A DNA stretch of 64,000 bases from an uncultured virus (IMG/VR IMGVR_UViG_2911005044_000001) (IMGVR_UViG_2911005044_000001), one strand, 5' to 3'; shown: positions 4,087-62,884, counted from the first letter of the stretch. A program made the numbers and translations. Notes: a model not told the origin generated them from the sequence alone.

Positions 4087-4128
4087 TACTTTTTAGATTA
4101 CGCTTTCGCGAAAGCATCATTATTTTTA

Positions 4129-4662
4129 TTACAGCGTTTTAGAAACTCGTGTTCTTCTTACAATTACTGGCTCAGATTCTTCGATTTCATCTCTCTCGAT
4201 GACATCTGGAGGCAATACAAATATTCCACCTGAGAACGGTCTGAATTTCAGTGGAAGCTCAGCCACATAAGGGTTAACATTAAAGATGATTTCATCTTCT
4301 GGATCGTTAAAAATGCCACTTACAAATACACGACCGTCATCATCTATTGCATAGTAAAATGGTTTTCCTTGACGGCTCAAAAGTGTTCCTGTATGCTCGC
4401 CTTGTTGGTTTTTGTTGATTGGTGCTGGTAGACTCAACTGCCAGCCCGCAATTTCCTTTCTTCCAGATCTGGAGCGCAATCTAATGTCTTTGCCAATGAC
4501 GATATTCTCGTTAATCACTGCATAAATATTACGTCCAGGTGAGTGCAACATATCTGCATTTAATTGATTAGATGGCACACTCAGCTCACGCTGAGTGTTT
4601 GCTATTAATCCGCCACCTTGTGTTTTGATTATTACATTACTTTGATATCCTACTATACTCAT
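4129..4662 (-). CDS. Hypothetical beta-rich protein, possibly a virion fibre/minor component
   Basis: 177-aa ORF coupled within the operon; beta-strand-like pattern. Confidence 0.45.
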   Translation of the reverse strand: MSIVGYQSNVIIKTQGGGLIANTQRELSVPSNQLNADMLHSPGRNIYAVINENIVIGKDIRLRSRSGRKEIAGWQLSLPAPINKNQQGEHTGTLLSRQGKPFYYAIDDDGRVFVSGIFNDPEDEIIFNVNPYVAELPLKFRPFSGGIFVLPPDVIERDEIEESEPVIVRRTRVSKTL

Positions 4663-5081
4663 TATTGTGCTATTATTATTCCGGTTAGTATGAGTAAGCC
4701 TCCGCCAAAAAACCAGCGCTCCAGCTTACCTCTTTTTATTTGTTTGTGCTGTCTTTTAATGGTCAAGTTCAGCTCTTGAATATGTGACTCATCATTATCT
4801 TGAATGATAACAAGGTTTTCAACTTTACGCTCCAACTTAACTATGATCGTATCCTTTTTTTGAGTGAGATACTGCCATCTATAGTTCCGTAATTGCAGCG
4901 TGTCTATAATACTATCTTGGTAAACACTGAACTCTAATCGCTTTGCCAGATACTTGGATTGTGACAAATCAAAACAGAAGTATTTTTTACTCTTTATATC
5001 TTGTACTATCGGCTGTAAATCCTGAGAAATACTCATACAAGTCCAGAGCAGACATCCTATCAATAGTATTAATTTTTTCAT
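4662..5081 (-). CDS. Signal peptide, coiled coil and C-terminal TM protein (spanin-like)
   Basis: MKKLILLIGCLLWTCMSISQ start, coiled coil, WFFGGGLLILTGIIIAQ end; overlaps upstream gene by ~95 bp. Confidence 0.5.
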   Translation of the reverse strand: MKKLILLIGCLLWTCMSISQDLQPIVQDIKSKKYFCFDLSQSKYLAKRLEFSVYQDSIIDTLQLRNYRWQYLTQKKDTIIVKLERKVENLVIIQDNDESHIQELNLTIKRQHKQIKRGKLERWFFGGGLLILTGIIIAQ

Positions 5082-5337
5082 CCAGTGCATTTTGTAAATT
5101 TTCTATCGTTTTATGGCTTGAGACTATTTTACCAGTTAAGCTATCCGTTTGCTTTTTTAGCCTTTTTATTTCTTCATCAAGGGTTACATTCTCAATTGAG
5201 AGTAGTTCGTTTTCCTCTTCTAATTTCTGAATAGTGTCATTGTTCAAAGCTTCTTCGTGCGGAATGATGTAAAAGATGAGCAAGACAATAATCCCTGCAA
5301 TCCAAAGCACTAATAAAAAAGGTTTCCAAAACTTCAT
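4987..5337 (-). CDS. Type II membrane coiled-coil protein (i-spanin/Rz-like)
   Basis: N-terminal TM followed by long heptad coil. Confidence 0.5.
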   Translation of the reverse strand: MKFWKPFLLVLWIAGIIVLLIFYIIPHEEALNNDTIQKLEEENELLSIENVTLDEEIKRLKKQTDSLTGKIVSSHKTIENLQNALDEKINTIDRMSALDLYEYFSGFTADSTRYKE

Positions 5338-5660
5338 TACTCTTTGGGTTTCGTTTGAAATAGCTTGTTCAAAAACTTCTCTAATAAGAGTTTATGAAAG
5401 ACCAATGCAAAAGCAAAAGACTGTAATAAACACTCAATCATTTTTATTTGATAACCTCTCAAGAAAAACAGCGCAACGCCGTAAATAATGCCAATTATGA
5501 GCACACGATAACGAGTCGCAATTTTGAGCTTAAAGACTTCATAGAAAAAGTTGGTTGAGCGGTAATGATTAAGACCATAAGCAATCACTATAAAGGTGAG
5601 TATATAAGCCCAGTCCAGACTGTTTAAATAATTGGATATGTGTGCTAAAATTTCTATCAT
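5337..5660 (-). CDS. Three-TM membrane protein (holin-like)
   Basis: 107 aa, three hydrophobic segments, basic C-terminus, upstream of spanin-like pair. Confidence 0.5.
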   Translation of the reverse strand: MIEILAHISNYLNSLDWAYILTFIVIAYGLNHYRSTNFFYEVFKLKIATRYRVLIIGIIYGVALFFLRGYQIKMIECLLQSFAFALVFHKLLLEKFLNKLFQTKPKE

Positions 5661-5905
5661 TTTAATTGTGTTTTAAGGGTTGATTTTATGCTTTTAATAT
5701 CTGCTTGTAACGCTACTATTTGATGATTAGGAAATAGATTCTTAGTCAAATGTGCTACTAAAACTATGGTTGCTCCAGAAGCTAATAGCGCAAGAATTAT
5801 CTTGGTTAATGTTTGATTGGTAAGTGTGACTGTAACTTCTGTTTTGATACCATCTTTATCTACCAGACCGTCTATTAAATCTTTAATGCTTCTCTTTTCT
5901 GCCAT
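5657..5905 (-). CDS. Small single-TM protein (putative virion membrane protein)
   Basis: IILALLASGATIVLVA segment. Confidence 0.55.
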   Translation of the reverse strand: MAEKRSIKDLIDGLVDKDGIKTEVTVTLTNQTLTKIILALLASGATIVLVAHLTKNLFPNHQIVALQADIKSIKSTLKTQLK

Positions 5906-6889: not shown

Positions 6890-6898
6890 TGGTTCGAT

Positions 6899-7420
6899 TT
6901 ACGATTGATAATTAGGAAGGCGTTGCACATAATTTGAGACGTATTCCTTCATTTCACTTTGGCTTAAAAAGCTATTCAAGTGTTGCCACATATCTTTTTT
7001 GTAGAGTTGATAATATGCTTTAGAAAGACTGGCGATTTGCGTTTTATCACGCAACTTTTTACCAAAAACATCTTTGATGGCCTCTTCATCATCATTAAAA
7101 GTGCCTTTCGCATCCTTAATGATTTTAGCCAGTTTCTTAGCCGAGGCATCGTCCAGTACTTGAATGCTTTTGGGCGCTACCCATTTCTGAACGTCAGTTA
7201 GGTAGTTCATATCAAATGGACTGTTCCAGTTCGGCTCTTGTTTGGTCGTTCCTACGTTTCCAGTAGTGACTTGCACGCCAGTTCCAACAGATGCGGTTGT
7301 TGTGGATTTAAGTGCTTGTTGCTTTGTACGCTTTCGCGAAAGCGTAACAAAAACACCTATCCCGATAACGCCAAGTCCCGCGCCACCTATCATCCACCAT
7401 CCTGTTTTTGAGATTTCCAT
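6899..7420 (-). CDS. N-terminal TM plus annexin-repeat-like helical domain
   Basis: AKIIKDAKGTFNDDEEAIKDVF..TQIASLSKAYYQLYKKDMWQHL. Confidence 0.55.
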   Translation of the reverse strand: MEISKTGWWMIGGAGLGVIGIGVFVTLSRKRTKQQALKSTTTASVGTGVQVTTGNVGTTKQEPNWNSPFDMNYLTDVQKWVAPKSIQVLDDASAKKLAKIIKDAKGTFNDDEEAIKDVFGKKLRDKTQIASLSKAYYQLYKKDMWQHLNSFLSQSEMKEYVSNYVQRLPNYQS

Positions 7421-7421
7421 A

Positions 7422-11057: not shown

Positions 11058-11808
11058 TGGCTCTATAATTTTCTATAAAATTGATAATATCTTTGGTACG
11101 CTCAATTTGTGAAGCACCGACTATTTCTGGATTTTTACCAAACACTTTTGTTACTGCATACACGGCTTCAATGGTGGGAAAACCATAATCGAGGTATTGT
11201 TTCATACCGCATAAATCTGCGGTAGTTTGACTGCGTGTATTTAAGAACCAATGACAGCCTTCGTGTGCCAAAATCGCCACACGAATAGGAATCGTATAAG
11301 ACTTAAACAAACGTTGAGAAATCTGTACTCTCGGCATTTTTCGATGCGTTCTCGCAGGTGTGATAAGCTCTGCGCCAAAAGGATCTGTAATCTTATCTAA
11401 ATATTGAAACAGAAATTCGTTGTCGGTGCTTTCATAAAAACCAGGAGGTACATATCCTGCTTTTTGCGCAAACTGAATTGCAAATTCTAAGAAACGATGT
11501 TGGTCGTCAGTCGCCCAAACCGCAAGTGCTGGCATTTTTTCAATTTTCACATTGACGATTTCAAAAGCATCGTCATCTGAGTGGTTTTTATCAAAGACTT
11601 CCATTTCCAGTACTTCTGGAGAGACTGGCAATGCGATCACAAATTCTCGTTTTGAGTTCGCTTTCGCGAAAGCGGCTTTTCTCCTAAAATAATAGCTGTT
11701 AGGATGCTCAGGATCATACACACGAATTCCCAACTCAAAAGGCATCAAAGCCATAATGGTCAGTTTTATCTGAAAGCGTTCTCTATTTGATGGTATGGTT
11801 GTTATCAC
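11050..11808 (-). CDS. Zincin-like metalloprotease (HExxH), candidate virion maturation protease
   Basis: AILAHEGCHWFLN..QTTAD; M48-like spacing, but the third ligand position appears to be Q. Confidence 0.6.
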   Translation of the reverse strand: MITTIPSNRERFQIKLTIMALMPFELGIRVYDPEHPNSYYFRRKAAFAKANSKREFVIALPVSPEVLEMEVFDKNHSDDDAFEIVNVKIEKMPALAVWATDDQHRFLEFAIQFAQKAGYVPPGFYESTDNEFLFQYLDKITDPFGAELITPARTHRKMPRVQISQRLFKSYTIPIRVAILAHEGCHWFLNTRSQTTADLCGMKQYLDYGFPTIEAVYAVTKVFGKNPEIVGASQIERTKDIINFIENYRANE

Positions 11809-13050: not shown

Positions 13051-13051
13051 T

Positions 13052-13690
13052 TTATCTCGGCATTGGCACCGGTGGCTGTCCGTAAGGCATTGGTGGACGT
13101 CCCGATTTCATTAATACTACCGCTCCGATACCTAAGACGACCACACCGCCACCTATCATTAGCATCATATTGGTTTTCTTTTTGGCAGCTTCGGCTTTCT
13201 TCTTTTCTTCCTCACGACGACGCGCTTCCTCTTGTCTGCGTCTTTCTTCTGCCTCACGACGTTTGCGTTCTTGCTCTTCGCGCATACGCTGCATACGCAT
13301 TTCCATATCTCTTTTAGCCGCAGCAGCCTGGGCAGATGCTCTTGCTTGTGCAGTTGCTTGAGCTGCGCCATTATTAGATGAACCTCCACGTTTCTTTTTC
13401 TTAAAGAGTCCACCTATAATGCCTACAGCACCTTTGGCAATCGCTCCCCAAAATTGATCGTTCTCTTGTGATGAGAATCGAGCGATTAAATTTTCTAACG
13501 CTTTCGCGAAAGCGTAATCTCCATCTTTTAATAGGTCAACCACCTCATTTACGAGTTGCTCTTTTGATGGTTTACCTTGAAAGAACACATTGCTTTTAGC
13601 AAGTAATTCTTGAACAGGTTTTGGATAATTGAGAACCAAATAAGTAAGGTTGTCAATCGCCTGATTATATTGTGATTGTTTATTTGACAT
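13052..13690 (-). CDS. Putative virion protein: helical N-domain, ENDQFWG motif, charged coil, C-terminal TM
   Basis: Translation; N-domain resembles that of 13680..14321. Confidence 0.6.
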   Translation of the reverse strand: MSNKQSQYNQAIDNLTYLVLNYPKPVQELLAKSNVFFQGKPSKEQLVNEVVDLLKDGDYAFAKALENLIARFSSQENDQFWGAIAKGAVGIIGGLFKKKKRGGSSNNGAAQATAQARASAQAAAAKRDMEMRMQRMREEQERKRREAEERRRQEEARRREEEKKKAEAAKKKTNMMLMIGGGVVVLGIGAVVLMKSGRPPMPYGQPPVPMPR

Positions 13691-15579: not shown

Positions 15580-15731
15580 TCGTTTAATTATTGATTGATT
15601 TCGTTTTGAATTACTTGGCGAGGTCTCTAAACCTTGATTGACTGCGAAGTTGAGAATGAATGGTAGTTTTTCCGCTGTCGCGAAAGGGACTTTGGGACGG
15701 AGGAAGAAATAATTATATTGCTGATTGTAAT

Positions 15732-16698: not shown

Positions 16699-17628
16699 CT
16701 AAATTGGACTACTCAACCCATCCTCGTGATAACGTAACTTTTCAGAAATCATTTTTACAATAGCCTCGTTCTTAGTTTTGTAAATGTTATTTCCATCAAA
16801 ATCCTGTTCGTTTAAAAGCATCTTTACTTTTCTGCTTTCTTCCTGATCGATGAACTTTTTACAAGCTCTTATAAATGCAGCACGACTGCAACCTTTAATG
16901 CGTTGCTCTCGCATATTCACGTACACAAAAAAACTCTTCTGGATTTTATATTCAAGCTCAGTAATCTTACCCATTGCAAAGGCATTAGAACATAATTCAT
17001 ACTGCTCATCTACGATAAGCTGACCTATGCGTACCATTTGATATTTAGGAATACGCTCTCTATAGCGAGTGACATCATCCACTTGATGATGTAAGCGCAA
17101 CCACGTACAGTTTTGCCATTCAGAGGTTGTGATTTTTGCTACAGATTGGTGTGTAAGCACAATATCAATCCCTTTATGACGCACTGTACAAAGTGCACCA
17201 ATCATAGACTGTCCTTTTGCACCTGTCATATAATGGTCAATATCGTCTAGGACTACGAGACCATTTTTATAGTGTTTCATAATCTTAGTAATGACTTCTT
17301 TCTTTTCGTCATTATCCATAGGCGAACCATCACTATTAAATGGTCTAATTCTGCGTGAAGATACTTTGGTAAGTGCTTTTAAATGATTTGGGCTTACGGT
17401 TCTGAATTGTGGGTAATCATCATCATTAGTGTCAAAAGCTAAAACTTTGCGACCTTTCTTTCCTATCACTAAATGATCCATCATATAGTGTTTGATCTCT
17501 TGTTTGTTGCGATAGGTTTTACCAACACCAGTTTCTCCACAAACCAGCATAATCATCGGTTGGCGCTCTAAATCTTCTTTCTTATAGCTTATAGGCTTAC
17601 GACCTCGATTAGATGTAGTTCCTGACAT
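16699..17628 (-). CDS. FtsK-HerA superfamily packaging ATPase (A32/PRD1 P9/Zot-like)
   Basis: Walker A GETGVGKT, Walker B LVVLDD, Arg-finger/sensor motif RHKGIDIVLTHQ. Confidence 0.75.
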   Translation of the reverse strand: MSGTTSNRGRKPISYKKEDLERQPMIMLVCGETGVGKTYRNKQEIKHYMMDHLVIGKKGRKVLAFDTNDDDYPQFRTVSPNHLKALTKVSSRRIRPFNSDGSPMDNDEKKEVITKIMKHYKNGLVVLDDIDHYMTGAKGQSMIGALCTVRHKGIDIVLTHQSVAKITTSEWQNCTWLRLHHQVDDVTRYRERIPKYQMVRIGQLIVDEQYELCSNAFAMGKITELEYKIQKSFFVYVNMREQRIKGCSRAAFIRACKKFIDQEESRKVKMLLNEQDFDGNNIYKTKNEAIVKMISEKLRYHEDGLSSPI

Positions 17629-18650
17629 TACGAATTGTTTTGTGGTTCTTCGGCAACATCTATGATGGGAATATCATCATCGACTTCTTCGACTTCTATA
17701 TCTTGAATGGTAGGTTCTGGTTTAATTTCTTTTTCTTTAAATGGCTTTTGTTCTGGTTGCGCTTTAACGCTGCGCTCTCCCTGCGGTCGTGAATCTCGCA
17801 CGCTCGATTTCGCGAAAGCGTAATCAGAACTATCTGTATCGTCCTTATTTTCATCTTCCTCCTTAATATCTTCAATTTCTGTTTCTCCTTTTTCCTGACG
17901 AACGATGTCCAGAATGCGATTTTCAAGTAGACTGTTTTCGGCACGTACTTCCATAACGACTTGTGCCTTTTTCATTAAAATAGAAATAACCGCACCCATT
18001 AATTGCTGTTCTGGCGTAAGCTTTTTAGCTTTCTTACGCAGGACTTGAGCGAGTAATGGCCTTAAGAGCGCTTGATCTTCTTTATCAAGCTTGATACGCT
18101 CAACATTTTTATCATTCTGCTGATCTACAACTTGAATGATTTCTTCAAACTCATAGAACTCTTGATGCTTTCTGATTTTTACGAAATAACCACCGCCAAC
18201 TGCAAGAACATTGTTAGACATTCCCAATATCGCATCGGCTGCTTGATTTGCTTGTGCGAGCGGTACTTCAAAATCTTGGTCGGTTACGGTTTCATCAGCT
18301 TCGGTATCAAATCCGTTTCCGTTAATTTCTTGTTCTGGAGCATCAAGTGGTTCTTGGGCTTTTTCCTTTTCGACCTTAGCTTCAACCTTAGTTCTAAAAT
18401 CGGTTTGGGTGTTTCCACTGCGTCCAGGTTCTAGTTCATCAAGGGTTTTATGCTCTTGTTCTGGTTTCCAAACGTTCCAGCTTTTTTGTTTTTCTTCATC
18501 GGCTTCAACAGGACGCTCGCCACCTATGTCTTTTTCAATTACAGGTTGGTTAAGTGGACTACTATCTTCGTTTTGAAGTTGTTCAAAATTGATTTCTTCT
18601 GGAGTTGCGGTAAGGGCATCTTGTACCTCTTGAGCGATTTTGTCTTGCAT
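17628..18650 (-). CDS. Acidic hypothetical protein coupled to the packaging ATPase
   Basis: Stop/start overlap at 17628; acidic termini, helical core ending PEQQLMGAVISILM. Confidence 0.6.
   Translation of the reverse strand: MQDKIAQEVQDALTATPEEINFEQLQNEDSSPLNQPVIEKDIGGERPVEADEEKQKSWNVWKPEQEHKTLDELEPGRSGNTQTDFRTKVEAKVEKEKAQEPLDAPEQEINGNGFDTEADETVTDQDFEVPLAQANQAADAILGMSNNVLAVGGGYFVKIRKHQEFYEFEEIIQVVDQQNDKNVERIKLDKEDQALLRPLLAQVLRKKAKKLTPEQQLMGAVISILMKKAQVVMEVRAENSLLENRILDIVRQEKGETEIEDIKEEDENKDDTDSSDYAFAKSSVRDSRPQGERSVKAQPEQKPFKEKEIKPEPTIQDIEVEEVDDDIPIIDVAEEPQNNS
17766..17810. repeat. 45-bp in-frame GC-rich insertion splitting a CGCTTTCGCGAAAGCG palindrome
   Basis: CGCTTT[aacgctgcgctctccctgcggtcgtgaatctcgcacgctcgattt]CGCGAAAGCG; TTT at both junctions. 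Confidence 0.65.
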
Positions 18651-19468: not shown

Positions 19469-22162
19469 TTAAAATATCTTTACTTTTTTACTAATATAAA
19501 CTTCTTTATAAACACCTCCGTCATCTTCTTTTAAATCCCTATTTAAAATAGGCGAATAGAATTCCAATTTTGCATCTTTTAAGACTTTACGTATCATTCC
19601 GAAGCCCATTACTTTACTATACACAATACTATTAACCAGTTGAGCATTGACTTCCGTACCTTTTATTGAGGCTTCAATTAAACCTTTCTCAAATTTCAGA
19701 TAGTCGTTGCAAAAGCTCCAGTCTAATAATTTGTCAGGTAGGTCTTTATGTTCAATATGTAATGAAGACAGATTGAATGTATTATAGACATTGAGTAATA
19801 CCAATTCCTTCCAGTAACTGAACTTATTATTCCATACTAACTTATTAATTAATTGGTTACTCAAAATTATTAACTTTAGTTTTTGAGCTTCGTCAACAGT
19901 AAATTCAGAAGATTTTAATGAAATCATAATTTGACTCAAGCCTAAATCTATAAAATCAAGTAACCAATTCTTAGATGTGTAATCTTGAATGTACTTATTT
20001 GATATAATTGAATGTCTAAAAGTTATTGGTTCTGATGGAGTATCAACTAATTTAAAGGCTTTATTACTATTTTCTACGAATAGGATAAATGTGTTTAGTA
20101 GCGCGTAATCGACATAATAACTTACTTCATAATTTGATGAGTTGATTTGTGATTCTAATCGTTTCAACCCAAATTTACGTTCCAATTTGTGCAATTCATC
20201 TAGCTGTTTATAGTGAACTTTGACTTGAGATAGTTCTTCAACATAGACTTCGTCCCAAAAATGTAAGAGAATATGAAATCCCACAAAGAGCGCATTAAGA
20301 CTTTTTGTGTCCTGTGATACTTTATTAATCCTTCGACTATCGATTAGAGTGGTAACCGCTTTAATTGTTTTCTCAATTTTACGAGCTATTCGTTGACCTT
20401 CACTTGCATTGATAAACGATTGCGTATGTTTTAAACTTATTTCCTCGTCCATACCATCATCGCCAGCTTCAGTAGCAAGCTCTTCTGCATTATCTGAGAG
20501 TTCTTCAGGATTCTCTCTAATTTTAAGAACATCAAGAAATTCTTCAACCATTGAAGTTATGTTGTCGCTTGTTACTCGTTCATCAAGGCTTAAACTTGCA
20601 TTTTTATTGTATTCATTTTCAGAAATGACTTCGCCTTCATCTTCTACATTTTCATTACTTACCAATAAAGGAGCTTGAGATGTCGAGCTATCCTTAAAGA
20701 CTTGCTCTTGATCTAAGAAATCTAATACCAGCTCATAGTTTAAAGAACTAAATATGTCTAAGTGTTCAAAACTTTGCAATCTAGCTAGGCGTTCATCTGG
20801 ATTAGATTTTTTGAGGGCATTTACATTTTGAATCAGTCCAAAGGTTGAAATACGTTCTTGTGAACTTGCATCATATAAAGCGACCTTAAAAATGCTTTCG
20901 GTCACTTTAAGTGGTGTCTGGATTGTTTTAGAGTTAACTGTAACATTTATATTTTCAAGTAGAACATTATTACTGTCAAACGTTTTCAGCGCACATTTGC
21001 TATTAAACTCTTTATCTAATGAAACTTCAACGATGCCATCACTCAACTCTGCGTGTTTGATTTTTAATAGACCTTCGATAATTTCTTGATTTTCTGACTC
21101 TGCGTTTATAGTGTTTTTAATATCAAGTGATCCATTTTTAGGAATTTGAATACCCAACTCTTTTATAAAGTCTTTATGCTTTTTAGTACGAAGTGTAACA
21201 ACAGCTTCGTCGTTTTTAAAAGCTCTATTACTTATTCCATAAGCCTCTAATGTTGCGTTGGCGCTTCCTAAAATAAATATAGTCTCCTCATTATATTCAA
21301 TCTGAATAATCTTTGCGTGAAGTCGCTGTATGCTTTTAGAGTTTTCAGTATTAATAACATCTTTCCAGTCAGAAAACTGACAAATACTTGATGTGAAATC
21401 CACAGGTAATGTGCCATTGCTAGTATCAACAACGCAGTGTATTTCTTCAGGTGCTAAGTCATCAATAAGCTTTTTCAAAAAGGCTCCAGACTTATTATAA
21501 TAAGGTGCTATAATTTTGATACTTTTTGGCTTTCGCGAAAGCGTACTTATAACCTCACTATACAAAGACTTTGTACTTTGAGTATAAAACATACTATACT
21601 CAATATCCTTAATAACAGTACTACTACCTTGATTATTTTCTAAATCTGATATCCATTGTGAATGTTGTGCAATCCAATTGATTTTGGTAACATTGATTCC
21701 CAAACTATGAGACGATAGTGACTGAATATATTGCCAAGCAGATTTAAAAATAGGCTGCGCATCCAATCGTTCTTTTGACGTGTAAAACGATGACCATATC
21801 TCATCATTATAGAGAAGTCCACTCGAAGTAATGTTACCACTACCTATTGAAAGATATCCCTTATCCTTTCCTACTAAAAATAGCATCTTAGGATGAAATG
21901 CTCCTGAAATACTAACTGGTGTAATACTGTAATTTGCATTGAATTTTTTAATACTATCGCCCAAGTGTGATGCGAGATATTTTTCTAGCATTGAAGCATC
22001 TACAAATAGATTAATATTAGTAATTCCTGCTCCTCGTAATCTTGGTAATATGAGTTGTTCAAAAAAAGCAAGGTCAATACTGTAGCTAGTAATAACGCAA
22101 CTATGGTATTTGTTCTTTCCTGTACCTATAAGCTCTAAAATGTTAGACCTTTCTATTTTCAT
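19469..22162 (-). CDS. Large PLD-superfamily nuclease-like protein (defence)
   Basis: TSYSID..FFE, FHPK..GSGNIT, LHAK..GSANAT. Confidence 0.7.
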   Translation of the reverse strand: MKIERSNILELIGTGKNKYHSCVITSYSIDLAFFEQLILPRLRGAGITNINLFVDASMLEKYLASHLGDSIKKFNANYSITPVSISGAFHPKMLFLVGKDKGYLSIGSGNITSSGLLYNDEIWSSFYTSKERLDAQPIFKSAWQYIQSLSSHSLGINVTKINWIAQHSQWISDLENNQGSSTVIKDIEYSMFYTQSTKSLYSEVISTLSRKPKSIKIIAPYYNKSGAFLKKLIDDLAPEEIHCVVDTSNGTLPVDFTSSICQFSDWKDVINTENSKSIQRLHAKIIQIEYNEETIFILGSANATLEAYGISNRAFKNDEAVVTLRTKKHKDFIKELGIQIPKNGSLDIKNTINAESENQEIIEGLLKIKHAELSDGIVEVSLDKEFNSKCALKTFDSNNVLLENINVTVNSKTIQTPLKVTESIFKVALYDASSQERISTFGLIQNVNALKKSNPDERLARLQSFEHLDIFSSLNYELVLDFLDQEQVFKDSSTSQAPLLVSNENVEDEGEVISENEYNKNASLSLDERVTSDNITSMVEEFLDVLKIRENPEELSDNAEELATEAGDDGMDEEISLKHTQSFINASEGQRIARKIEKTIKAVTTLIDSRRINKVSQDTKSLNALFVGFHILLHFWDEVYVEELSQVKVHYKQLDELHKLERKFGLKRLESQINSSNYEVSYYVDYALLNTFILFVENSNKAFKLVDTPSEPITFRHSIISNKYIQDYTSKNWLLDFIDLGLSQIMISLKSSEFTVDEAQKLKLIILSNQLINKLVWNNKFSYWKELVLLNVYNTFNLSSLHIEHKDLPDKLLDWSFCNDYLKFEKGLIEASIKGTEVNAQLVNSIVYSKVMGFGMIRKVLKDAKLEFYSPILNRDLKEDDGGVYKEVYISKKVKIF

Positions 22163-47596: not shown

Positions 47597-47923
47597 CTAT
47601 AATTTATGATCTATGGCATATTGTTGATGGTACAGCGGTTCCAGCGACCAGATAAAGTCATTAGCTTCTTCCTGGTCTGCATAGTGAATAGAACACAACT
47701 GCGACGTTCCATCGGTTTTAAAACACTCGTATCGATAGCATTGCACAGGATTATCTTCATTTGAAATATCAATGGTCGTCCATCGCAGGATGAGTGTGTT
47801 TTTACGCTTTCGCGAAAGCATAATCTGAAAATCTGTACATCGTTCTTTACAAGCTTTATTGATCTCAATCGCTCTGTCCATTATCTTGTGAATGACGCTT
47901 TGCTTTAAGGTTTTCTTATCCAT
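47597..47923 (-). CDS. Hypothetical protein
   Basis: 108-aa ORF overlapping the vWA-like gene. Confidence 0.6.
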   Translation of the reverse strand: MDKKTLKQSVIHKIMDRAIEINKACKERCTDFQIMLSRKRKNTLILRWTTIDISNEDNPVQCYRYECFKTDGTSQLCSIHYADQEEANDFIWSLEPLYHQQYAIDHKL

Positions 47924-48929
47924 TTGGCTGCAACTGATTTTTATAATTGGTAATGATTTGTGAGACCTCTTTTACTGCCGAATCCATCGAATAACTTTGT
48001 TCAAAAACGAAGCCTTTAGGGTTTATCGCTTTCGCGAAAGCGGCACCCATACTAGCCGAAATAGTTCCCAAACCAGAAGGAATCGTGAGACCGAAATAGT
48101 TACTCATCGTCACCAAAGATTTAAAACCACGAAACCTGAAATAACGTGGATCACTACTCATCAATAGCAATTGGTTTTTATCCAGTTTATCCTGAAAGCG
48201 TTTTACGCGCACACAACCCATCGTGACCTGGTTATTGAAAGAAGTGCCCAACATCACATTCACTTCAACCGAAATGCCACGCAGTTCCATAAACTCTACA
48301 AGCTCTGCACAGGCGAGACCTACATAAAGCAAATCGTTACCCTTTACGTGGGCATTTGCACCAGCCATAATGTACAATTGAAGCGATGGATACGACATTT
48401 GCTTGTCCTTGAAATAGGCAAATACACTCTTCACCGAAGTGAGCACTTTCTTGTTTCCTAACTCAATATTCATCTGACTTACAGAGGTGTTGAGTGGCGA
48501 AGTCGTATTAATAGGAAACTGTTGATACATTCCCATCGCAGCACGCTCGAAAGAGAACACGCCAAGACCACGATCATTGTAAGCCATCTTTGGTTTTGGC
48601 ATTACAGAATCGTTGATATACTGCAAATAATGTATGAGTTTCTCCTTGATTTTTGGCTGAATTTTAGCGACAAGTGACATCCCTAAAAAGGTACGATGTT
48701 CGTTAAGCTCCTTAACTGTTTTAGGTGTTGGTGTGCCGTACCAATCCGTTCCACTTTGTAGCTGACTATCGGTACTTTCTTCAATAAAATTCCAACGCGA
48801 CTGATTTGCAGATGATAGATTTTTAGTCTCATCATCTACAAAAGCATTGAAAGCAAAGACACTATCAAATAATAGATAGTTGTATTTGCCATTAGGACTT
48901 TTAAGGGTATGTTGTTTTGGTGCGCTCAC
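47916..48929 (-). CDS. vWA/CobT-like partner of the MoxR AAA ATPase
   Basis: LVEFMELRGISVEVNV..VRVKRFQDKLD..PRYFR.RGF..GLG pattern typical of phage CobT-like vWA partners. Confidence 0.5.
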   Translation of the reverse strand: MSAPKQHTLKSPNGKYNYLLFDSVFAFNAFVDDETKNLSSANQSRWNFIEESTDSQLQSGTDWYGTPTPKTVKELNEHRTFLGMSLVAKIQPKIKEKLIHYLQYINDSVMPKPKMAYNDRGLGVFSFERAAMGMYQQFPINTTSPLNTSVSQMNIELGNKKVLTSVKSVFAYFKDKQMSYPSLQLYIMAGANAHVKGNDLLYVGLACAELVEFMELRGISVEVNVMLGTSFNNQVTMGCVRVKRFQDKLDKNQLLLMSSDPRYFRFRGFKSLVTMSNYFGLTIPSGLGTISASMGAAFAKAINPKGFVFEQSYSMDSAVKEVSQIITNYKNQLQPNG

Positions 48930-57000: not shown

Positions 57001-58309
57001 ACATATGCTCGCCTTGCGCTTTCGCGGAAGCGTGAACGTCTGCTAATAATGGCGCCACAAATTCCTGCTCAAAAGCCACTACGTCATTCATTAAACTGAT
57101 GATGCGATTGACGCTTTCTCGACTTTTACTGCGTTGTGGTTCGGCGTCCAGTGTTATGTAATCTACATTGATACCTTCGTTGGAACGCTGACGTCTAATA
57201 AGCTGACCACTTTCTGAAAGATTGGATGCCACAATTTCCTGTAATGCTAATCCGCCACTGGTCATTGAACGCACAAAATTTGAGTCGGTCAATCCTGTTT
57301 CAGCGATGGCGGTTTTCTTCGCATAGAAAGGCATCACTTCTGGATATTTGGCGAACGTAGCACTCAAAAAGCAACAAGCTTTAGTTTGCGGCAAGACTTC
57401 GCGCATCCAGGTACCGATGATGGAATCGAAACCGCCAGCCATATGCGACTCATCGAGAATGAAGATGAGCTTCTTATATTTTTTACTTCCATCGATTCCG
57501 TTATTTACCATTTTCTCAATCCACATACGTTTGTAGGGATGTGCAGATTGCACTTGAGAATAAGTAGCAAAAATCATATCATAACCCAATGGTAAATGGT
57601 CGAGCGTCAATGGAATTTTAATAGTTGGTGTTTTATCAGGATCAGGTAGTTTCTTCCCAATCTTTTTATGGTATTCAATAGACTCTGGACTCTCCGTTGG
57701 AAATTCAATTTCGTTTGAAATCAGGTCAGCTTGCGCAGAACTACTCAGCGGACTGAACACCACATTACCATCGGCATCTTTAATCTTTGCATTGGTATCT
57801 GTATTGACTATGAATGGCCTGATGTTCTCAAAACCTATCGCTTTCAGATCACGATACATATCTGTAAACAAGTCTGGTTTCTTGGTAAAAAAGACAGGAA
57901 TATAATCGTTCATAACTGCGTGTCGTATCACCGCAGCAGCCTGCCGACCTTTTCCTATTCCTGTCTGATCTGCTATAATAATGCCTTGCTCATTTTCAAA
58001 TTGATTGAGATACAAACCAACCGCATCCACTTGTTCTGCACCCAATCCACTCCAAAGTTGTTTGGTGGATTCATACTTTAATTGATTACGCACATAATTA
58101 TCAATATTCCCTTTTGTCTTCACAATGCTATTGAGCGACTTTTGAACCTCAAATGCCATATTACGCGGAATGAGCGTATTCATTCGGTATGGCGCTTTTG
58201 ACTTTGGGACGTATTCCACTAAAGCACTTTCTTGCGTGGCAAGTTTTGCGACCTCTTCGGCATCTTGCTTAAAATCTGCCTGTTCTATTTCTAATTCTTG
58301 GTTACTCAT
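54050..58309 (-). CDS. Strawberry-notch-type SF2 helicase with C-terminal DarA_C-like domain
   Basis: YVPKS, EQVDAV, IADQTGIGKGR, LDESH, LSATF, EVTGR, GSTGSSAHA, QKRGRINRTGQ; C-terminal GLVIYNRPLTDKEKYNYSLIP. Confidence 0.85.
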   Translation of the reverse strand: MSNQELEIEQADFKQDAEEVAKLATQESALVEYVPKSKAPYRMNTLIPRNMAFEVQKSLNSIVKTKGNIDNYVRNQLKYESTKQLWSGLGAEQVDAVGLYLNQFENEQGIIIADQTGIGKGRQAAAVIRHAVMNDYIPVFFTKKPDLFTDMYRDLKAIGFENIRPFIVNTDTNAKIKDADGNVVFSPLSSSAQADLISNEIEFPTESPESIEYHKKIGKKLPDPDKTPTIKIPLTLDHLPLGYDMIFATYSQVQSAHPYKRMWIEKMVNNGIDGSKKYKKLIFILDESHMAGGFDSIIGTWMREVLPQTKACCFLSATFAKYPEVMPFYAKKTAIAETGLTDSNFVRSMTSGGLALQEIVASNLSESGQLIRRQRSNEGINVDYITLDAEPQRSKSRESVNRIISLMNDVVAFEQEFVAPLLADVHASAKAQGEHMSSKPRGLGVKQSPYFSRVFNIIDQMLFALKVKDVVAHTIKLLKEDKKVVIAFKSTMGAFLKDLNLVSGDVIPNEQMDFVRTLVKGLDGIFNYNYVAIDGEKTRERIQLEELPQNGIEKYNDIKKRMLLESSGLSISPIDELIHLLQTEKKPKHLGGHSDMYFKVAEVTGRNQRIDLTDDEAVVESFRSNTERSFRMFNSGDYDVLLINQSGSTGSSAHASKDFKDQRQRAMIVHQFELDINTEVQKRGRINRTGQVNLPEYYYITSDIPTEKRLMTMLKAKLKSLDANTTGSQKTNDDTLKSADFLNKYGDIAAWNWVDENQEMMEQLGYPTYQKKTDKRGFISYERNGFKEGAIRQLTGRAGLLKVEDQDALYDDLLERYDHQIKLEKQQGTYDLETEFLPLDAEVKKRFLFQKGQGGRTPFGKDTVRDITIVNNLKRPFTKQDIDQRIQDALDGEKPVQVRLKLEDQINEAYPKLLEDRKAKRFKVIEKLKEDREVLPQRGSGETEEENEKILSDWNKLEALINQKTSQLATYIAGLENIQSIILRYTNMWNIGDVIRVPFIGTTIKPSWGIFLGVSVGKSGKNPYTLSNISLKFGVTDSRKILTYSLQPAEQSFISQVFTESRGITDVDIQMVNLEWNELIKKASSKRERRHILTENIVGASGQIGTQNKLIKYNTKEGTIKNGILLHRDFGKEGEADSALLPVSEAYPIISKLDLDDFFADHKLSFRAKRISDNYYQVYLDKKDLYPAVIDEKLRSLLRRESGQSQDELPDFVQNAGDMTGALHLENLQPFLNRLDAFQVQYMGKARELEDWEIENETDWKAQTKQKKGNFKYQLGRAYGQGSNPTIGFVSYEEPTADYEFGLVIYNRPLTDKEKYNYSLIPIFKNVEEPYQDWKTTILQTEIKDDFNAIIEEVRDLPLHEAIEAMGYFILNNLHEDGNAEFVFGKYTALDLGRVFYEDTIAQIASIDELINQLQIALK

Positions 58310-58727
58310 TCTTGTGTTGGGCTAATGCTTCTAAATAAGTTCGTAATGTGATTTCTAAATACAACTGAATGGCCTCTTCTTTATCCATACCACTTCCATA
58401 AAGCAATGAATCTTGAGGTGCGGTTTCGTCCAGTTTATCCCAACTTTCTTTGAGTGTCCAGAGTGCGAGTTGCATCTTATCTGTATTGGCAAGAAAGTCG
58501 GCTATTTCTGCTACCGATTTCCCTTCGGTGTAGACCAACTCCAGATAATCTTCAATAAGAGCAATTGGGTTTTCACCTTTCGCGAAAGCGTGTTCCACCA
58601 GTAGATGTAATTGAATGTAAAGTGCTGCTTCGTGGTCTTCATAGCGTTCAAATGATTTGGTGTTTGTGACCATAAAGAGTTTTGTACTCGTGTCGTTAGG
58701 CATTAATTGATTATTGAAATAGATCAT
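58302..58727 (-). CDS. Hypothetical helical protein
   Basis: 141-aa ORF overlapping both neighbours. Confidence 0.6.
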   Translation of the reverse strand: MIYFNNQLMPNDTSTKLFMVTNTKSFERYEDHEAALYIQLHLLVEHAFAKGENPIALIEDYLELVYTEGKSVAEIADFLANTDKMQLALWTLKESWDKLDETAPQDSLLYGSGMDKEEAIQLYLEITLRTYLEALAQHKNE

Positions 58728-61468
58728 TTTGTTCTTGCGGTTTTAAGCTGTTTTATGATGGTATCGATATTTGGTTTGATGTGCGATTTGGTTTGCTTCC
58801 AGAGATCTTCAAACGTCTCTACCATATCTTCTAAATGTGGTTGTTCGCTTTTGTTTGGTGCTACTCCATAAGGTTTTGATTTACGACCACCAATGAGAAT
58901 GAGCATTGTTTTTGTAACCGCTCCTTGTTTATTGTAGAGCTTGTAACTATTCATATTAATCACATCGTCTACTTTGTAATGACGATACAGCCAGTTGAAA
59001 AACGGACGGTATTTTGCAAAAAGTCCGTCGTCTCCAAAATAGACGTGTCCCATTATAATAATTGCTGCCTTGCCATCATCTTTCATCGTGTAAAGCGCCA
59101 ATCCAGCCATCAAGTGTTCTAGGCGAATATGGTTTGCTAATCCGCGATGTTTGTTGAAGTATTTCTGTATAATTCGCTCCTTATCAAACTTAGAATCATC
59201 CCAACTTGCAAATGGCGGATTGGTCACGACCACATCGTGAACTTTGTGCATCATTTCTGGAAATGGTTCTGCTGCGTTATCTGATGTAATACGACCAAAA
59301 CCTTGATGCTCTAAAGATTGTTTTCGGCTTTTATCTATCTCGTTGACGTGAGTGATTCTTGGATTCGCTCCTACGAGTAGCAACCCATTTCCAGCACTTG
59401 GCTCAAAGATGAACTCGGCTTCATCCATTTGGGTGTATTGCGCGATGATGGCTCCAATAGGACAAGGCGTGGAATACTGTTTGTAGAGTTCTTTACTACT
59501 ATCAGAATACGCATAGGTAGGTTGCACTTTATTCCAAAACAACACCATCTTTTTCAGTCGTGCTTCAAATGGGATAGGTTCTCTGTAGAGCATCTTGTAC
59601 CATAACAACCAACTCAATTCTACCGCTTCCCAAAGTGCGCCCATCGTTGGTGCATTGGTTTCTTCTCTAAGCTTTTCTATCTTCTTTTTTGATAGGCGTT
59701 CCGCTTTCGCGAAAGCGGTATGCAGAATAGCTATGACCTTATCTAAATAGTCGTTGGGTTCTTGATGTTTTTCTTTTTTAGGCTTGGGTTCTGGAAGTGA
59801 TTCTTCGACCTCTAAATCCTTGTTCATATAATCCTGAATGACCAGTTTGGATCTTTCCAATCTGCTTATTTCCCATTCAATATCATTGAAAGCTTCTTTG
59901 GACTGCTTATCGGTTCTGGGTTTGTTGGATTTTGGGTTGACTAATTCCAATTTCTTTTCAACCAATTCCATTAATAAGGAATCCATAATCACAATTCCCT
60001 TTGCTAAATCTGCAATAGGTCTGGAATGTTCGACCGCAGACCACCATTGATGCCTGTCATCGTATGCGCCAATTTGAGAAGCTAAAGTTGAGACACTTTT
60101 ATAACCAGTATGAACGTTCACATAAGGATAATCTAAATCTGTAGGATAGCCGATTTCTTCAAACGCTTCCAGACCGCGACTTTCCCACTCACGAAGAACT
60201 GTAGAACGATTTACATTAATTCCATAATCATTAGGATGTGCCATTTGAGACAGACGAAATAAATCTAATCCAGAGGCTTGTTCAATGGTATCATCTGTAA
60301 TGTTGTAGAGTCGCTTGAACTTCATTCTCATAAAGTTGGCATCACTTAAATTGAGTCCACCAGATTGAAAAGGTTCGCCAGCTTTTGTTGGGACTAAAAC
60401 ATTGGGAACAATATGATCGCGATTGAAAATATCTTTTGATACAGATAGCGTTCTAGCGACCTCTTCTTTCAGATGGAAAAGAGGTAAGTCTAGCGATAGG
60501 TTCAAGCGATTGATTTCCATTAACGCCATTGTGCGCGATGAGAAAGTCAAATCCAAAATCCAATCCTTAAAGTTTTGTAGCGCTTTTAAAAGTTCGTTCT
60601 TAAAACGTAGTTCGCTGGATTGTTCCTGCGCATCTTCTAAATCTAAAATGGTGGTGGCTATGATGGTTTCATCTTCACCTTCAAGACTCTCTTCTAAAAT
60701 TACAAGTTTGCTAATCACTTCGCTTAAAATCTCACGAGTAGAAATTTTACGCTCTTTATCGGTCTTGTAACCAGACTCATTTTCTTTAGGCACTTCTTCA
60801 AGGGTCTCTTCGTTTTCAGTTTTACTATCTTCTATAGGAAGTTCGTTTTCTATTTTGATTTGCTTTTCGTTGTTTGTTGTCTCAAGAGTAGGTTTGTCTT
60901 GAGCTTTGCCATCCTCTATAGGAAGGTAGTTTTCTACTTCCTTAGTAGGTTCGTTTTCTATTTCCGTTATCTCATCGACTTTAAAACGATTTATAATTTG
61001 CCCTTTGTCATATATAATGCGAGCTTTCCGTTTATAGTTTCTGGGAGAGACTTCGACGTTTTGCAAATCGTCTCCATATTTGGTAATGGCATATTGAGTT
61101 GCTATTTCTGTAGCGACCTTCTTATAGGGATCGAATAAAACATAGTCCTTCGTTTCTGCCTTTTCTGTACCTCTGTATGAAATAGTAACAAAACTAAATT
61201 TGCTTTTATCAATGTTTTCTAAGGAAGGTTGAAACGATGGATACATCGAAACCGTTTTCCAATCGTCTCCACGAGAAAACGCATCTCTTAAGGAAGTAGC
61301 AAAACTTTTATAGGCTGGATGCGCATCAGAATACCAAGTATTTTTCTTCTTAAAAACCTCGCGAAAGCCTAATTCTAATAGGAAGGTCGAAAACTCTTTG
61401 GGTAGGTTTTCACTGAATAGCAATTCAATTGCGTTTTTCTCTTCGTTCTCTGTAATCGTTACCTGCAT
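58724..61468 (-). CDS. Large polyvalent protein with C-terminal N6-adenine DNA methyltransferase (DarB-like)
   Basis: QYSTPCP, FEPSAGNGLL, HVNEID, VVTNPPF, MKDDGKAAII. Confidence 0.85.
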   Translation of the reverse strand: MQVTITENEEKNAIELLFSENLPKEFSTFLLELGFREVFKKKNTWYSDAHPAYKSFATSLRDAFSRGDDWKTVSMYPSFQPSLENIDKSKFSFVTISYRGTEKAETKDYVLFDPYKKVATEIATQYAITKYGDDLQNVEVSPRNYKRKARIIYDKGQIINRFKVDEITEIENEPTKEVENYLPIEDGKAQDKPTLETTNNEKQIKIENELPIEDSKTENEETLEEVPKENESGYKTDKERKISTREILSEVISKLVILEESLEGEDETIIATTILDLEDAQEQSSELRFKNELLKALQNFKDWILDLTFSSRTMALMEINRLNLSLDLPLFHLKEEVARTLSVSKDIFNRDHIVPNVLVPTKAGEPFQSGGLNLSDANFMRMKFKRLYNITDDTIEQASGLDLFRLSQMAHPNDYGINVNRSTVLREWESRGLEAFEEIGYPTDLDYPYVNVHTGYKSVSTLASQIGAYDDRHQWWSAVEHSRPIADLAKGIVIMDSLLMELVEKKLELVNPKSNKPRTDKQSKEAFNDIEWEISRLERSKLVIQDYMNKDLEVEESLPEPKPKKEKHQEPNDYLDKVIAILHTAFAKAERLSKKKIEKLREETNAPTMGALWEAVELSWLLWYKMLYREPIPFEARLKKMVLFWNKVQPTYAYSDSSKELYKQYSTPCPIGAIIAQYTQMDEAEFIFEPSAGNGLLLVGANPRITHVNEIDKSRKQSLEHQGFGRITSDNAAEPFPEMMHKVHDVVVTNPPFASWDDSKFDKERIIQKYFNKHRGLANHIRLEHLMAGLALYTMKDDGKAAIIIMGHVYFGDDGLFAKYRPFFNWLYRHYKVDDVINMNSYKLYNKQGAVTKTMLILIGGRKSKPYGVAPNKSEQPHLEDMVETFEDLWKQTKSHIKPNIDTIIKQLKTARTK

Positions 61469-61689
61469 CTGTATCGGGAATAGGAAAACTCATCGCTATA
61501 GGAAGCTCGTTTTCTCTTTGATTTAGGATAAATATAGATTTGAGAGTCGGTCGATTGACCTTACGGAAATGTACTTCGGTACATTGGGATTATTTTGAAA
61601 TTAGGTTGAAATGGGTAATCGTAGTAACGGTAAGGGTTTTGAATTTATGGGTGGGATAAATTCAATAATTTTAGAAGGTACTCTAAAGT

Positions 61690-61726
61690 AATATCCCTGA
61701 ACTTTCATTTTAAGTTCAGGGATATT
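61690..61726. terminator. Intrinsic terminator after the glycosyltransferase gene
   Basis: AATATCCCTGAACTT-tcatttt-AAGTTCAGGGATATT, 15-bp stem. Confidence 0.7.
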
Positions 61727-61732
61727 GATTGA

Positions 61733-62884
61733 TTAAATATATAAGGAAGTTATTTTATCAATAGATGTCTTTGCAAAGCTGTTATTATTCCAGATATTCT
61801 TTATGAGACTAGAAGAAAAATTTTTCTCTTTATCATATTTTACAAGTGTTTCAAGAGCTTCTAACCACTCAGGAGCTTCACTCGCTAAAAATCCATTTTC
61901 TGCATTGTGAATCCATTTTTTGACTGGATGGTGAGATGATGCAACTACAGGAATCCCAAACGTTGAAAGCTCCATAAAAAGCTGATAGTTTTGATGCCTA
62001 TTAAAAAGACATTCTAAAGCAGGTAGTAAAACTACATCGAGTTGTAAGCTGTTCAACTTTTCAAAATAATCTAAGAATGAAACGGTAGGATGTATTTCTA
62101 CTTTATATTCTTTAAAAAGTTTTTCTACTTCCCATACAGAATAGGGCTTCCCGAAGTAAATAAACTCAATTTGATCTCCAAAATTTTTTCTCATTTTAAA
62201 AAGTACTTCCTTAAGAGATAGCAAATCTTCTTCGGTTGATTTTATTAAGCCTACTCGTAATTTCTCTGAAGTGTTTCTTGTAAGTGGTGGCATTTCTTCA
62301 TAGCCATATCTCGAGACTAAACTGGGAAGGTATTGCACAAATGTATGTGCGTTTTCTAAGCGGTCGTCAATGAATCGCTGCAAGAACTTTTGAAAAGCTT
62401 CATTTGCAACAGTCACGATATCCATTAGACCCAAATTATTTTCTATGCACTTTAGTTTGTCATTAGTTAGCTTTCGCGAAAGCGGAATAGAAACAGGTAT
62501 CGCAAAATAATTTCTATCTAAGTCCATCACTAATTGAACCGAAGGATTAAGCGTTTTGATAGCCTGCATCAAATAGCTAACATCACTAAACAGGGCAGGG
62601 AAAATGATGTAATCTGCCCAGGTAATTAAGCGCTCATCCAGCTGATTTACAAAATCAGAAAGTTTCATCGAGAAGTCATTGGTCTCGATACTGGTAATAA
62701 TCGCCTTATGCGTATCTGTTTTATTGATTTCTAATGCAGGTGTTATCATCCTGTAATAACCTGTCGCATTGAGTTTGGGACTCACATAAAGCAGATGAAT
62801 TTTATCATCTGCCTCTATGTTATATCGCTGGTCAAAATTGTTTTTAGGATTGAGCTTCGCTTGTAATTCTTTAATTGTTCTCAT
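61733..62884 (-). CDS. GT-B (GT4-like) glycosyltransferase
   Basis: TGYYRMITP, VMDLD, DVVLLP, ELSTFGIPVVAS, NGFL. Confidence 0.7.
   Translation of the reverse strand: MRTIKELQAKLNPKNNFDQRYNIEADDKIHLLYVSPKLNATGYYRMITPALEINKTDTHKAIITSIETNDFSMKLSDFVNQLDERLITWADYIIFPALFSDVSYLMQAIKTLNPSVQLVMDLDRNYFAIPVSIPLSRKLTNDKLKCIENNLGLMDIVTVANEAFQKFLQRFIDDRLENAHTFVQYLPSLVSRYGYEEMPPLTRNTSEKLRVGLIKSTEEDLLSLKEVLFKMRKNFGDQIEFIYFGKPYSVWEVEKLFKEYKVEIHPTVSFLDYFEKLNSLQLDVVLLPALECLFNRHQNYQLFMELSTFGIPVVASSHHPVKKWIHNAENGFLASEAPEWLEALETLVKYDKEKNFSSSLIKNIWNNNSFAKTSIDKITSLYI

Follow-up and report, generated by a model that had tools for sequence, protein, structure and literature searches.

A palindrome iterated on an integrative island is probably a lineage tag imported from other genera

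Introduction

The 64-kb stretch IMGVR_UViG_2911005044_000001, catalogued as DNA of an uncultured virus and called here, at its full length, the window, raises the question of why a single 14-bp palindrome, GCTTTCGCGAAAGC, recurs throughout it, for the most part within unrelated genes. A preliminary description, made from the sequence alone, regarded the motif as a host-wide protein-binding or recombination signal of the HIP1, matS, parS or uptake-sequence kind that the backbone of a mobile element had acquired. We analyzed the window, the genome that contains it and genomes of the same family and order. The palindromes are, with a probability of about 0.8 that concerns their provenance only and not their function, the tag of a donor lineage, similar to highly iterated palindrome 1 (HIP1) or an uptake sequence, which was imported on a mobile island.

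Short iterated motifs are known from several systems. Dispersed sites of ParB-family proteins, namely parS, the Noc-binding sites and the KorB operators on IncP plasmids, are suitable for comparison. The DNA uptake sequences (DUS) of Neisseriaceae were reportedly described by Frye et al. in 2013 (PMC3630211), and HIP1 of cyanobacteria is said to have been treated by Elhai in 2015 (PMC4390886). Our literature search returned nothing on the exact sequence of the present motif, nor on iterated palindromes or uptake sequences in Bacteroidetes/Flavobacteria.

Results

Over-representation of the palindrome in the window

The window contains 11 perfect copies of GCTTTCGCGAAAGC, the first at 4102 and the last at 62470, which lie where the preliminary description had placed them, as well as six near copies. 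No perfect copy was generated in 100 dinucleotide-preserving shuffles, and the mean number of shuffled copies with at most two mismatches was 0.23. The reported extension of the palindrome was also borne out: five of the 11 perfect copies extend to the 16-mer CGCTTTCGCGAAAGCG (CGC...GCG; our own count on the list of flanks), and the copy at 7330 is embedded in a 20-bp palindrome at 7327–7346. The two copy-free gaps noted earlier, 23.2–33.1 and 37.2–47.8 kb, are empty even when two mismatches are allowed; by our estimate, both are statistically unremarkable given approximately one site per 5 kb.

The 10-bp core of the motif is TTTCGCGAAA. It is present at 19 sites in the whole island described below, 18 of which are coding and are read in all frames, as previously noticed, giving AFAK-type (11), LSRK (6) and FRES (1) peptides; the copy at 4102 is non-coding. 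We compared these readings with those expected from composition. AFAK occurs 10 times in the island against 0.3 expected, and the exact motif codons are used in 10 of 10 cases against 0.10 expected. In 1 Mb of the host chromosome, AFAK occurs four times against 4.4 expected, and none of these uses the motif codons. Codon or peptide bias was rejected as the cause of the counts, the expectations being surpassed 20- to 100-fold.

Confinement of the copies to an integrated island

The genome containing the window, G000, is assembled as one contig of 4.56 Mb with a G+C content of 34.6%. Homology with a contig of another family member, G310, delimits an integrated island of approximately 85.4 kb at 3,127,855–3,213,213, which corresponds to about −17,069 to 68,290 in window coordinates. 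The entire window is interior to this island and, therefore, the preliminary description was made without any host DNA in view. G000 has 16 perfect copies of the motif, 15 of which are located at 3,130,714–3,207,393 inside the island and one at 112,003. The 85-kb island contains 19 copies of the 10-bp core, as opposed to six in the 4.47 Mb outside it, which makes the core density of the island 166-fold higher. In the sister species G209, one copy of the motif is present, and the island element was not found with a 529-aa backbone protein as the query. Because 15 of the 16 perfect copies are confined to the island and the core is so much denser there, the motif is not a host-wide signal in G000, contrary to the earlier proposal.

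Abundance of the motif in other genera

In the family sample, the motif occurs at least once in 66 of 401 genomes. Four of them are motif-rich (722, 581, 409 and 797 copies), and the next highest counts are 22, 16, 16 and 14. Leaving out G000 and the four motif-rich genomes, 61 genomes carry the motif, many of them with the copies grouped within tens of kilobases of one another. The reversed sequence, used as a control, was absent from G000 and the four motif-rich genomes; the sole control match noted was one copy in G081. Counting across the family thus located the chromosome-wide motif in other genera instead of in G000: it is present in 39 of 39 species of genus g15 (298–858 copies), in 34 of 34 species of genus g268 (70–906 copies) and in the one genome of genus g248 (409 copies). 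Beyond the family, single copies were found in 5 of 311 genomes of the order, and no genome had more. Copy number in g268 is independent of genome size, with approximately 830–906 copies in genomes of 5.2–5.5 Mb and 757–899 in genomes of 3.3–3.4 Mb; the additional DNA of the larger genomes may be of more recent origin and contain the motif less often.

Properties of the motif in motif-rich chromosomes

In the chromosomes of g15, g268 and g248, the motif occurs approximately once per 4–8 kb. We characterized its sites in the first 280 kb of the motif-rich genome G268, a sample with 57 exact copies and 86 cores. The flanks lengthen the palindrome symmetrically toward TTACGCTTTCGCGAAAGCGTAA with decaying strength: C/G at the ±1 positions in about 80%, followed by A/T and then T/A. 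Extended forms differ among genomes. In G438 (g268), the 19-mer with ACG added on one side and GTA on the other was counted 277 times in forward and 274 times in reverse orientation, compared with 899 for the 14-mer. The 18-mer was present at 13 of the 409 G248 sites and the 20-mer at 8 of the 858 sites of G404 (g15).

Of the 86 cores, 37 (43%) are non-coding, though non-coding DNA makes up 11% of the sample. The intergenic cores lie between convergent (10), divergent (9) and tandem (18) genes, as expected if gene orientation is irrelevant. Approximately 10 of the 37 intergenic copies sit 4–9 bases past the stop codon of the neighboring gene. The 49 coding copies are distributed over all three frames (AFAK, 29; FRES, 12; LSRK-type, 8), and AFAK is again in excess, with 29 occurrences against 1.3 expected and the exact motif codons in 27 of the 29. 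For 35 of the 49 coding sites, G000 has an orthologue that covers the site; 28 of the 35 alignments are ungapped there, usually with different residues in the orthologue. Therefore, these sites arose by substitution, overriding the protein sequence.

These features bear on the proposal that the copies are a tiny mobile repeat, similar to repetitive extragenic palindromic sequences or miniature inverted-repeat transposable elements, inserted into the island, or else a product of codon or peptide bias. The many exact copies and the 43% of G268 copies that are intergenic would suit such a repeat. However, the ungapped alignments at 28 of 35 sites, the 49 of 86 sites that are coding and the proto-sites found two to five substitutions away at orthologous positions (see below) speak against insertion. 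No longer repeat surrounds the G268 sites, and flank conservation fades gradually without sharp ends. With copies in three frames and the peptide and codon expectations exceeded as stated above, we regard this explanation as refuted and give it practically no weight.

We next considered the distribution of the sites over whole replicons, which the preliminary description had proposed to map against the replication origin (ori) and terminus (ter). In two complete genomes, sites are present in every ori-to-ter quintile (14, 13, 4, 12 and 10 in G404; 6, 15, 15, 9 and 14 in G438), and no ori clustering, ter pattern or ter exclusion was detected at a resolution of about 60–70 kb. The sites are evenly spaced, and short gaps are depleted: only 1, 0 and 2 gaps fall below 0.15 of the mean, where approximately 13–14 would be expected, and the coefficients of variation are 0.74, 0.68 and 0.92. 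One intergenic position recurs across genomes. Ten of the 11 motif-rich g15/g268 genomes have a copy 103–321 bp upstream of dnaK, within otherwise unalignable DNA; it is near-perfect in the g248 genome and missing in G411 and G000.

A site for a chromosome-organizing protein, such as one that marks domain boundaries, loads or blocks SMC or acts in a manner similar to nucleoid occlusion, would be in keeping with a palindrome of 14–22 bp, with the even, chromosome-wide spacing and with intergenic positions conserved across genera. We nevertheless consider this role of the motif in the donor genera quite unlikely. At the above resolution, the sites show neither a relation to ori or ter nor an exclusion from ter, no extra ParB/Noc paralogue is present, and the 300–900 exact sites per genome far exceed those of the chromosome-organizing systems known to us.

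Acquisition of the motif by the island

The island of G000 is also present in G310, a motif-rich genome of g15 (84–95% nucleotide identity over C10:346–91158), and in G099 of the motif-poor genus g100 (90–98% identity), in which all 16 copies of the motif are on one contig at C3:32,331–110,016. Elements related to it were found in five of the 39 g15 species and nine of the 34 g268 species and are rare elsewhere (6 of 401 family genomes, including G000 and G310). The motif is as dense on the G310 element (14 copies per 90.8 kb) as on one of that genome's chromosomal contigs (16 copies per 96.9 kb). G000 and G310 have 16 orthologous core sites in common, and the 14-mers are identical at 14 of them. 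Where the alignment falls below 92% identity, full conservation was seen for 9 of 10 motif windows but for only 12–23% of background 14-bp windows (binomial P ~3e-6). Together with the substitutions that override residues and the codon usage beyond expectation, this conservation upholds the earlier suggestion that selection acts on the DNA and not on the protein.

More distant relatives of the island revealed that the element was not the source of the motif. The backbones in G187, G064 and G094 are collinear with that of G000 at 65–81% identity, and they have no copy of the 14-mer and at most one core. Near-miss proto-sites two to five substitutions away, GCTTTTGTGAAAGC, GATTTAGTGAAAGC, GCTTTTACGAAAGC, GCTTTGGCGATACC and CCATTAGCAAAAGC, occupy orthologous positions in these relatives. 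The absence of the motif from the relatives and the near misses at aligned positions indicate, therefore, that a few substitutions per site created the motif on a single branch of the element family. The earlier view that the element had acquired the signal thus stands, whereas its restriction to the backbone does not, as copies are also present in the Wadjet block and in the type III restriction-modification genes.

The relatives also help to judge whether the sites are the island's own operators or centromere-like sites, read by an island regulator or partition protein in the manner of the KorB operators of IncP plasmids, with the chromosome-wide abundance being secondary. In favor of this idea, roughly 15–19 sites are spread over 85 kb and strongly conserved between copies of the element, a palindrome suits a dimeric binder, and the backbone codes for a DnaA-C-like HTH protein. 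However, the related backbones of G187, G064 and G094 lack the sites, and the chromosomes of G014, G248 and G268 are filled with the motif while the element was not found there with two queries. The island HTH protein was detected in only one of five motif-rich genomes and the island WYL protein weakly in two of five, no ParB-family gene was found in the scanned open reading frames (ORFs) of the island, and sites are also present in variable cargo and in unrelated mobile elements. Such an origin is therefore very improbable and largely refuted.

Given that the dialect of the flanks differs among lineages, we compared the half-sites of the island with those of the donor genera. The flank GT was found at 11 of 30 island half-sites and GA at 4 of 30. 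The corresponding numbers were 53 and 10 of 124 in a g268 chromosome, and 12 and 31 of 76 in a g15 chromosome. By its sequence, the island dialect looks like that of the g268 chromosome and not that of g15 (Fisher test of island against g15, p = 0.03 for GT and 0.006 for GA), in a comparison that comprises 30 half-sites and in which the sites of related genomes are not independent.

Besides the small size of the dialect test, several observations weigh against the import of a donor tag. The G000 and G310 copies of the island have diverged by 5–16%, yet nearly all sites are kept; either motif-rich hosts harbored both lines until a short time ago, or selection for the sites comes from the element itself. 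Among the g15 and g268 species representatives, no island copy is more than 89% identical to that of G000, and the direct donor was, for this reason, not identified. Uptake sequences are scarce in recently acquired genes according to Findlay & Redfield (2009; PMC2817400), while accessory genes of G268, i.e., those without a G000 homologue, approach core genes in density (1.5 per 10 kb against 1.7–2.5 in genes with a homologue). No reader protein was found, as detailed in the section on candidate readers.

On balance, we favor import on the island, by the following route. In at least three genera, the donor genera g15, g268 and g248, the palindrome is maintained over the whole chromosome. Copies would originate by point substitution at near-miss proto-sites, mostly intergenic or at poorly conserved codons, and would then be retained through selection at the DNA level. 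DNA that resides long in such a host, including islands, conjugative transposons and temperate phages, would gain the tag at the density of the host. The island of approximately 85 kb probably acquired its copies, whose flank dialect looks like that of g268, in a tag-bearing host, and it probably moved next into the motif-poor genus of G000 and, separately, into g100. The copies in G000 are most likely passengers without a reader in the cell.

Other mobile DNA carrying the motif

The single perfect copy of G000 outside the island (112,003) sits outside the window in a conjugative transposon of the Bacteroidota type at about 80–135 kb (L005, L006), which also has near copies at 101,167, 121,075 and 132,242. 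Its genes code for TraG, TraM, TraN/DUF4138, a coupling protein, SSB and heavy-metal efflux cargo. A ParB-like ORF of 616 aa is located near this transposon, at 80,860. In six motif-poor genomes (G099, G101, G115, G138, G213 and G277), a pair of motifs is exactly 933 bp apart. The pair of G099 lies in an OEP/TolC-like outer-membrane efflux gene (L027:15012–16229). This gene belongs to a copper/heavy-metal resistance module that also encodes a CusA/B-like pump, a P-type ATPase and a multicopper oxidase, and whose spread seems to have started in a motif-rich lineage. Five viral contigs, which were picked for having at least two copies and are thus uninformative on frequency, have the core once per 5–8 kb, and the three that were annotated are all temperate.

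The occurrence on such elements raises the alternative that the motif is a self-tag of the donors that shields the DNA residing there against a nuclease or defence system of the host, acting like Chi but in either orientation, and that elements and temperate phages mimic it. It would fit a frequency of about one site per 4–8 kb with short gaps depleted, the near-host density in accessory genes, the island, the transposon and temperate phages alike, and the strong conservation of the element sites. As all three annotated viral contigs are temperate, however, residence in a chromosome could explain their copies without mimicry, and known Chi sites are short and asymmetric. We consider this alternative unlikely.

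Candidate readers and possible functions in the donor genera

The sites are exact, two-fold symmetric, evenly spaced and have graded flanks. Because of these properties, the data point to a dimeric, sequence-specific DNA-binding protein that would mark DNA as the cell's own. We searched for genes that track the abundance of the motif, and the families considered showed no such link. An extra ParB gene was not found: a single ParB_N gene is present in 9 of 10 motif-rich genomes and likewise in most of the motif-poor ones, and no ParB_N match was obtained among the island ORFs scanned (at least 90–100 aa). An ATPase of the type IV pilus/type II secretion system (T2SSE/PilB-type) scored above the cut-off in three of the 10 motif-rich genomes and two of the 14 motif-poor ones, and C5 DNA methyltransferases were present in 7 of 10 and 9 of 14, respectively. 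Since neither the pilus ATPases nor the C5 methyltransferases track motif richness, these two families lend no support to a link with uptake or with methylation. The island HTH and WYL proteins were rejected as universal readers on account of their distribution given above.

Tentatively, and at less than even odds, we suggest that the motif functions in DNA uptake or recombination in the donor genera, as do DUS and the uptake signal sequences (USS) and as has been proposed for HIP1. A more specific idea, which we offer as speculation and hold to be doubtful, is that the motif is a kind of self-DNA recognition tag undescribed in Bacteroidota: a two-fold symmetric uptake or recombination tag of 14–22 bp with genus dialects and a dimeric reader, which islands, transposons, metal-resistance modules and temperate phages residing in these genera would acquire, making it a watermark for the provenance of mobile DNA across the family.

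Individual sites in the window

The copies are described below in window coordinates, with the strand of the gene in parentheses. The perfect copy at 4102..4115 is located between the ORFs 3754–4086 (−) and 4129–4662 (−); G099 has the same 14-mer and G310 has GTTTTCGCGAAAGC. Three perfect copies that are identical in G310 and G099 follow, at 7330..7343 in ORF 6899–7420 (−), at 11660..11673 in ORF 11050–11808 (−) and at 13500..13513 in ORF 13052–13690 (−), where the local identity to G310 is about 81%. The motif-free relative G187 has GCTTTTGTGAAAGC at the first and GATTTAGTGAAAGC at the third of these, and the sequences of G187 and G064 are unrelated at the second. The near copy at 15674..15687 (GCTGTCGCGAAAGG, two mismatches) does not have an intact core; it is the weakest member and could be due to chance. 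The near copy at 17806..17819 (GATTTCGCGAAAGC, one mismatch) lies in ORF 17628–18650 (−), and G310 has the same variant. The perfect copy at 21529..21542, in ORF 19469–22162 (−) for a PLD-like protein of 897 aa, is identical in G310 at a local identity of about 84%.

At 23138..23151, in ORF 22159–23736 (−), the variant copy GCTTTCGCGAAAAT is followed by GTGA, whereas G310 has ...AAAAC. The variant half-site GCGAAAAT with GTGA (23138–23155) occurs once in the island and at several independent places in the G268 chromosome, and it may represent an alternative or tolerated form of the half-site and not a product of decay. Cargo not common to G310 contains the perfect copy at 33119..33132, in an N6/N4 DNA methylase gene (31406–33259, +). 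A type III restriction helicase-endonuclease gene (35026–38151, +) has a near copy with one mismatch at 36907..36920 and a perfect copy at 37163..37176.

Two perfect copies at 47806..47819 (ORF 47597–47923, −) and 48028..48041 (ORF 47916–48929, −, with a DUF7192 domain) are identical in G310 and G099, the latter despite differing flanks. At the former, G187 has ATTTTGGTAAAAAC and G064 has GCTTTGGCGATACC, and at the latter G187 has GCTTTTACGAAAGC. A Strawberry-notch-like helicase gene (54050–58309, −) contains the near copy at 57018..57031 (GCTTTCGCGGAAGC, one mismatch). The near copy at 58576..58589 (CCTTTCGCGAAAGC, one mismatch) lies in ORF 58302–58727 (−); the same variant is found in G310 and G099, and G064 has CCATTAGCAAAAGC. 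The last two perfect copies, at 59703..59716 in an N6 methylase-like gene (58724–61468, −) and at 62470..62483 in a glycosyltransferase-like ORF (61733–62884, −), are identical in G099 and in G310, with local identities to G310 of about 88% and 86%, respectively.

Gene content and boundaries of the island

Homology maps against G310, G099, G187 and G064 assign the island backbone to approximately 3.1–19.2, 45.9–49.0 and 52.9–64.6 kb of the window. The remaining parts of the island are variable and mostly defence cargo. Many backbone proteins are without family matches, and those with matches include peptidoglycan hydrolases, a Zot-like ATPase, the DnaA-C-like HTH protein and a MoxR-like ATPase; the Strawberry-notch-like helicase adjoins the methylase-like protein. 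The variable cargo comprises Wadjet JetABCD, the type III restriction-modification system, an SNF2 helicase with DUF4391 and a KAP NTPase. Scans of the island ORFs with Pfam, PHROGs and NCBIfam revealed no Tra or type IV secretion system (T4SS) genes. Likewise, no capsid or portal genes were found among the ORFs scanned, PHROGs giving a few lysis- and tail-lysozyme-like matches, and a search against known phages returned one weak match (29% identity over 26% of the 529-aa backbone protein).

Hydrogenase maturation genes flank the island on the left, and a large serine recombinase is encoded at its right end (L004 2675–4279). The island ends are the same in G000 and G310, and the right end is the same in G099. 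A tRNA-Arg gene overlaps the right end in G310 and G099, whereas the right junction of G000 has only the element-borne 3′ part of tRNA-Arg and the other half is missing. A second, small integrative element directly past the island end (L004:4290–9199) codes for a tyrosine integrase, an HTH_17 protein and a DUF5906 primase-like protein. The Wadjet JetABCD system is complete and lies on the island just left of the window (L003:9172–15737), with about 95% identity to G310, and genes for WYL, PD-(D/E)XK, DUF2779 and KAP NTPase proteins are near it. In motif-free cargo of the window (27876–30377 and 26696–27871), an 833-aa Hsp70-like ATPase-domain protein adjoins a UvrD-like helicase and an AlkB-like dioxygenase; this group may be an uncharacterized defence module.

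Discussion

The closest precedent for the window is that of the Neisseria integrative elements which are recognized via a foreign DUS dialect (Hughes-Games et al. 2020; PMC7371117). Both cases involve an integrated mobile element with a short iterated tag that is unlike the distribution in the host and has its source in another genus. Unlike in Neisseria, however, the island tag is a perfect palindrome of 14–22 bp, the phylum is different, and the recipient chromosome is essentially without a tag of its own. In addition, the island is not recognizable as conjugative, having no Tra/T4SS genes in the scanned ORFs, in contrast to the integrative and conjugative elements of Neisseria.

For the donor chromosomes, the closest systems among those compared are USS/DUS and HIP1. 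USS are located at poorly conserved codons and accumulate after transfer, as described by Findlay & Redfield (2009; PMC2817400). HIP1, whose role was long a puzzle, has recently been proposed as an uptake signal and linked to transformation by Rodriguez-Cruz et al. (2026; PMC13756078), and it exceeds one copy per gene in some genomes according to Xu et al. (2018; PMC5861425). Similar to USS/DUS, the donor motif occurs in hundreds of exact copies per genome, has lineage dialects, is enriched in intergenic DNA, and is found in all frames at poorly conserved positions, where it inflates the encoded peptides. It differs from USS/DUS, which are approximately 4–5 times denser, in being palindromic, longer and correspondingly sparser; moreover, pilus ATPase genes do not track the palindrome, and accessory genes are as rich in it as core genes. 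Like HIP1 (GCGATCGC) of cyanobacteria, the motif is palindromic, is hyper-abundant in both genes and spacers, is spaced quasi-regularly and shows more conservation than neutrality would predict. Unlike HIP1, it measures 14–22 bp and not 8 bp, is approximately 10 times sparser, is confined to three genera rather than occurring in most of a phylum, and has no methyltransferase found to track it in the C5 family, the one tested.

The sites of ParB-family proteins resemble the motif in being palindromes of 13–16 bp with TTTC...GAAA-like arms that are tolerated in genes and spread over the replicon. In contrast to these, the motif is not accompanied by an extra ParB-family gene, shows no ori clustering or ter exclusion, and has 10–100 times more sites. 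Hence, of the kinds of signal that the preliminary description had listed, the HIP1- and uptake-sequence-like ones are retained, whereas the parS-, matS- and Noc-like ones are not.

Taken together, the motif marks imported DNA in the window and is not a signal of the host. This iterated palindrome, which greatly exceeds HIP1 in length, is apparently undescribed, under selection and genus-wide, being present in each of the 73 species sampled from two genera and in one g248 genome. With its DNA-level selection, even spacing and genus dialects, the system would be the second or third natural one in which to ask what such tags do. The tag may also be used as a marker of provenance, as the clusters that we looked at lie on mobile DNA, i.e., the island, the conjugative transposon and the copper/heavy-metal module in six genomes.

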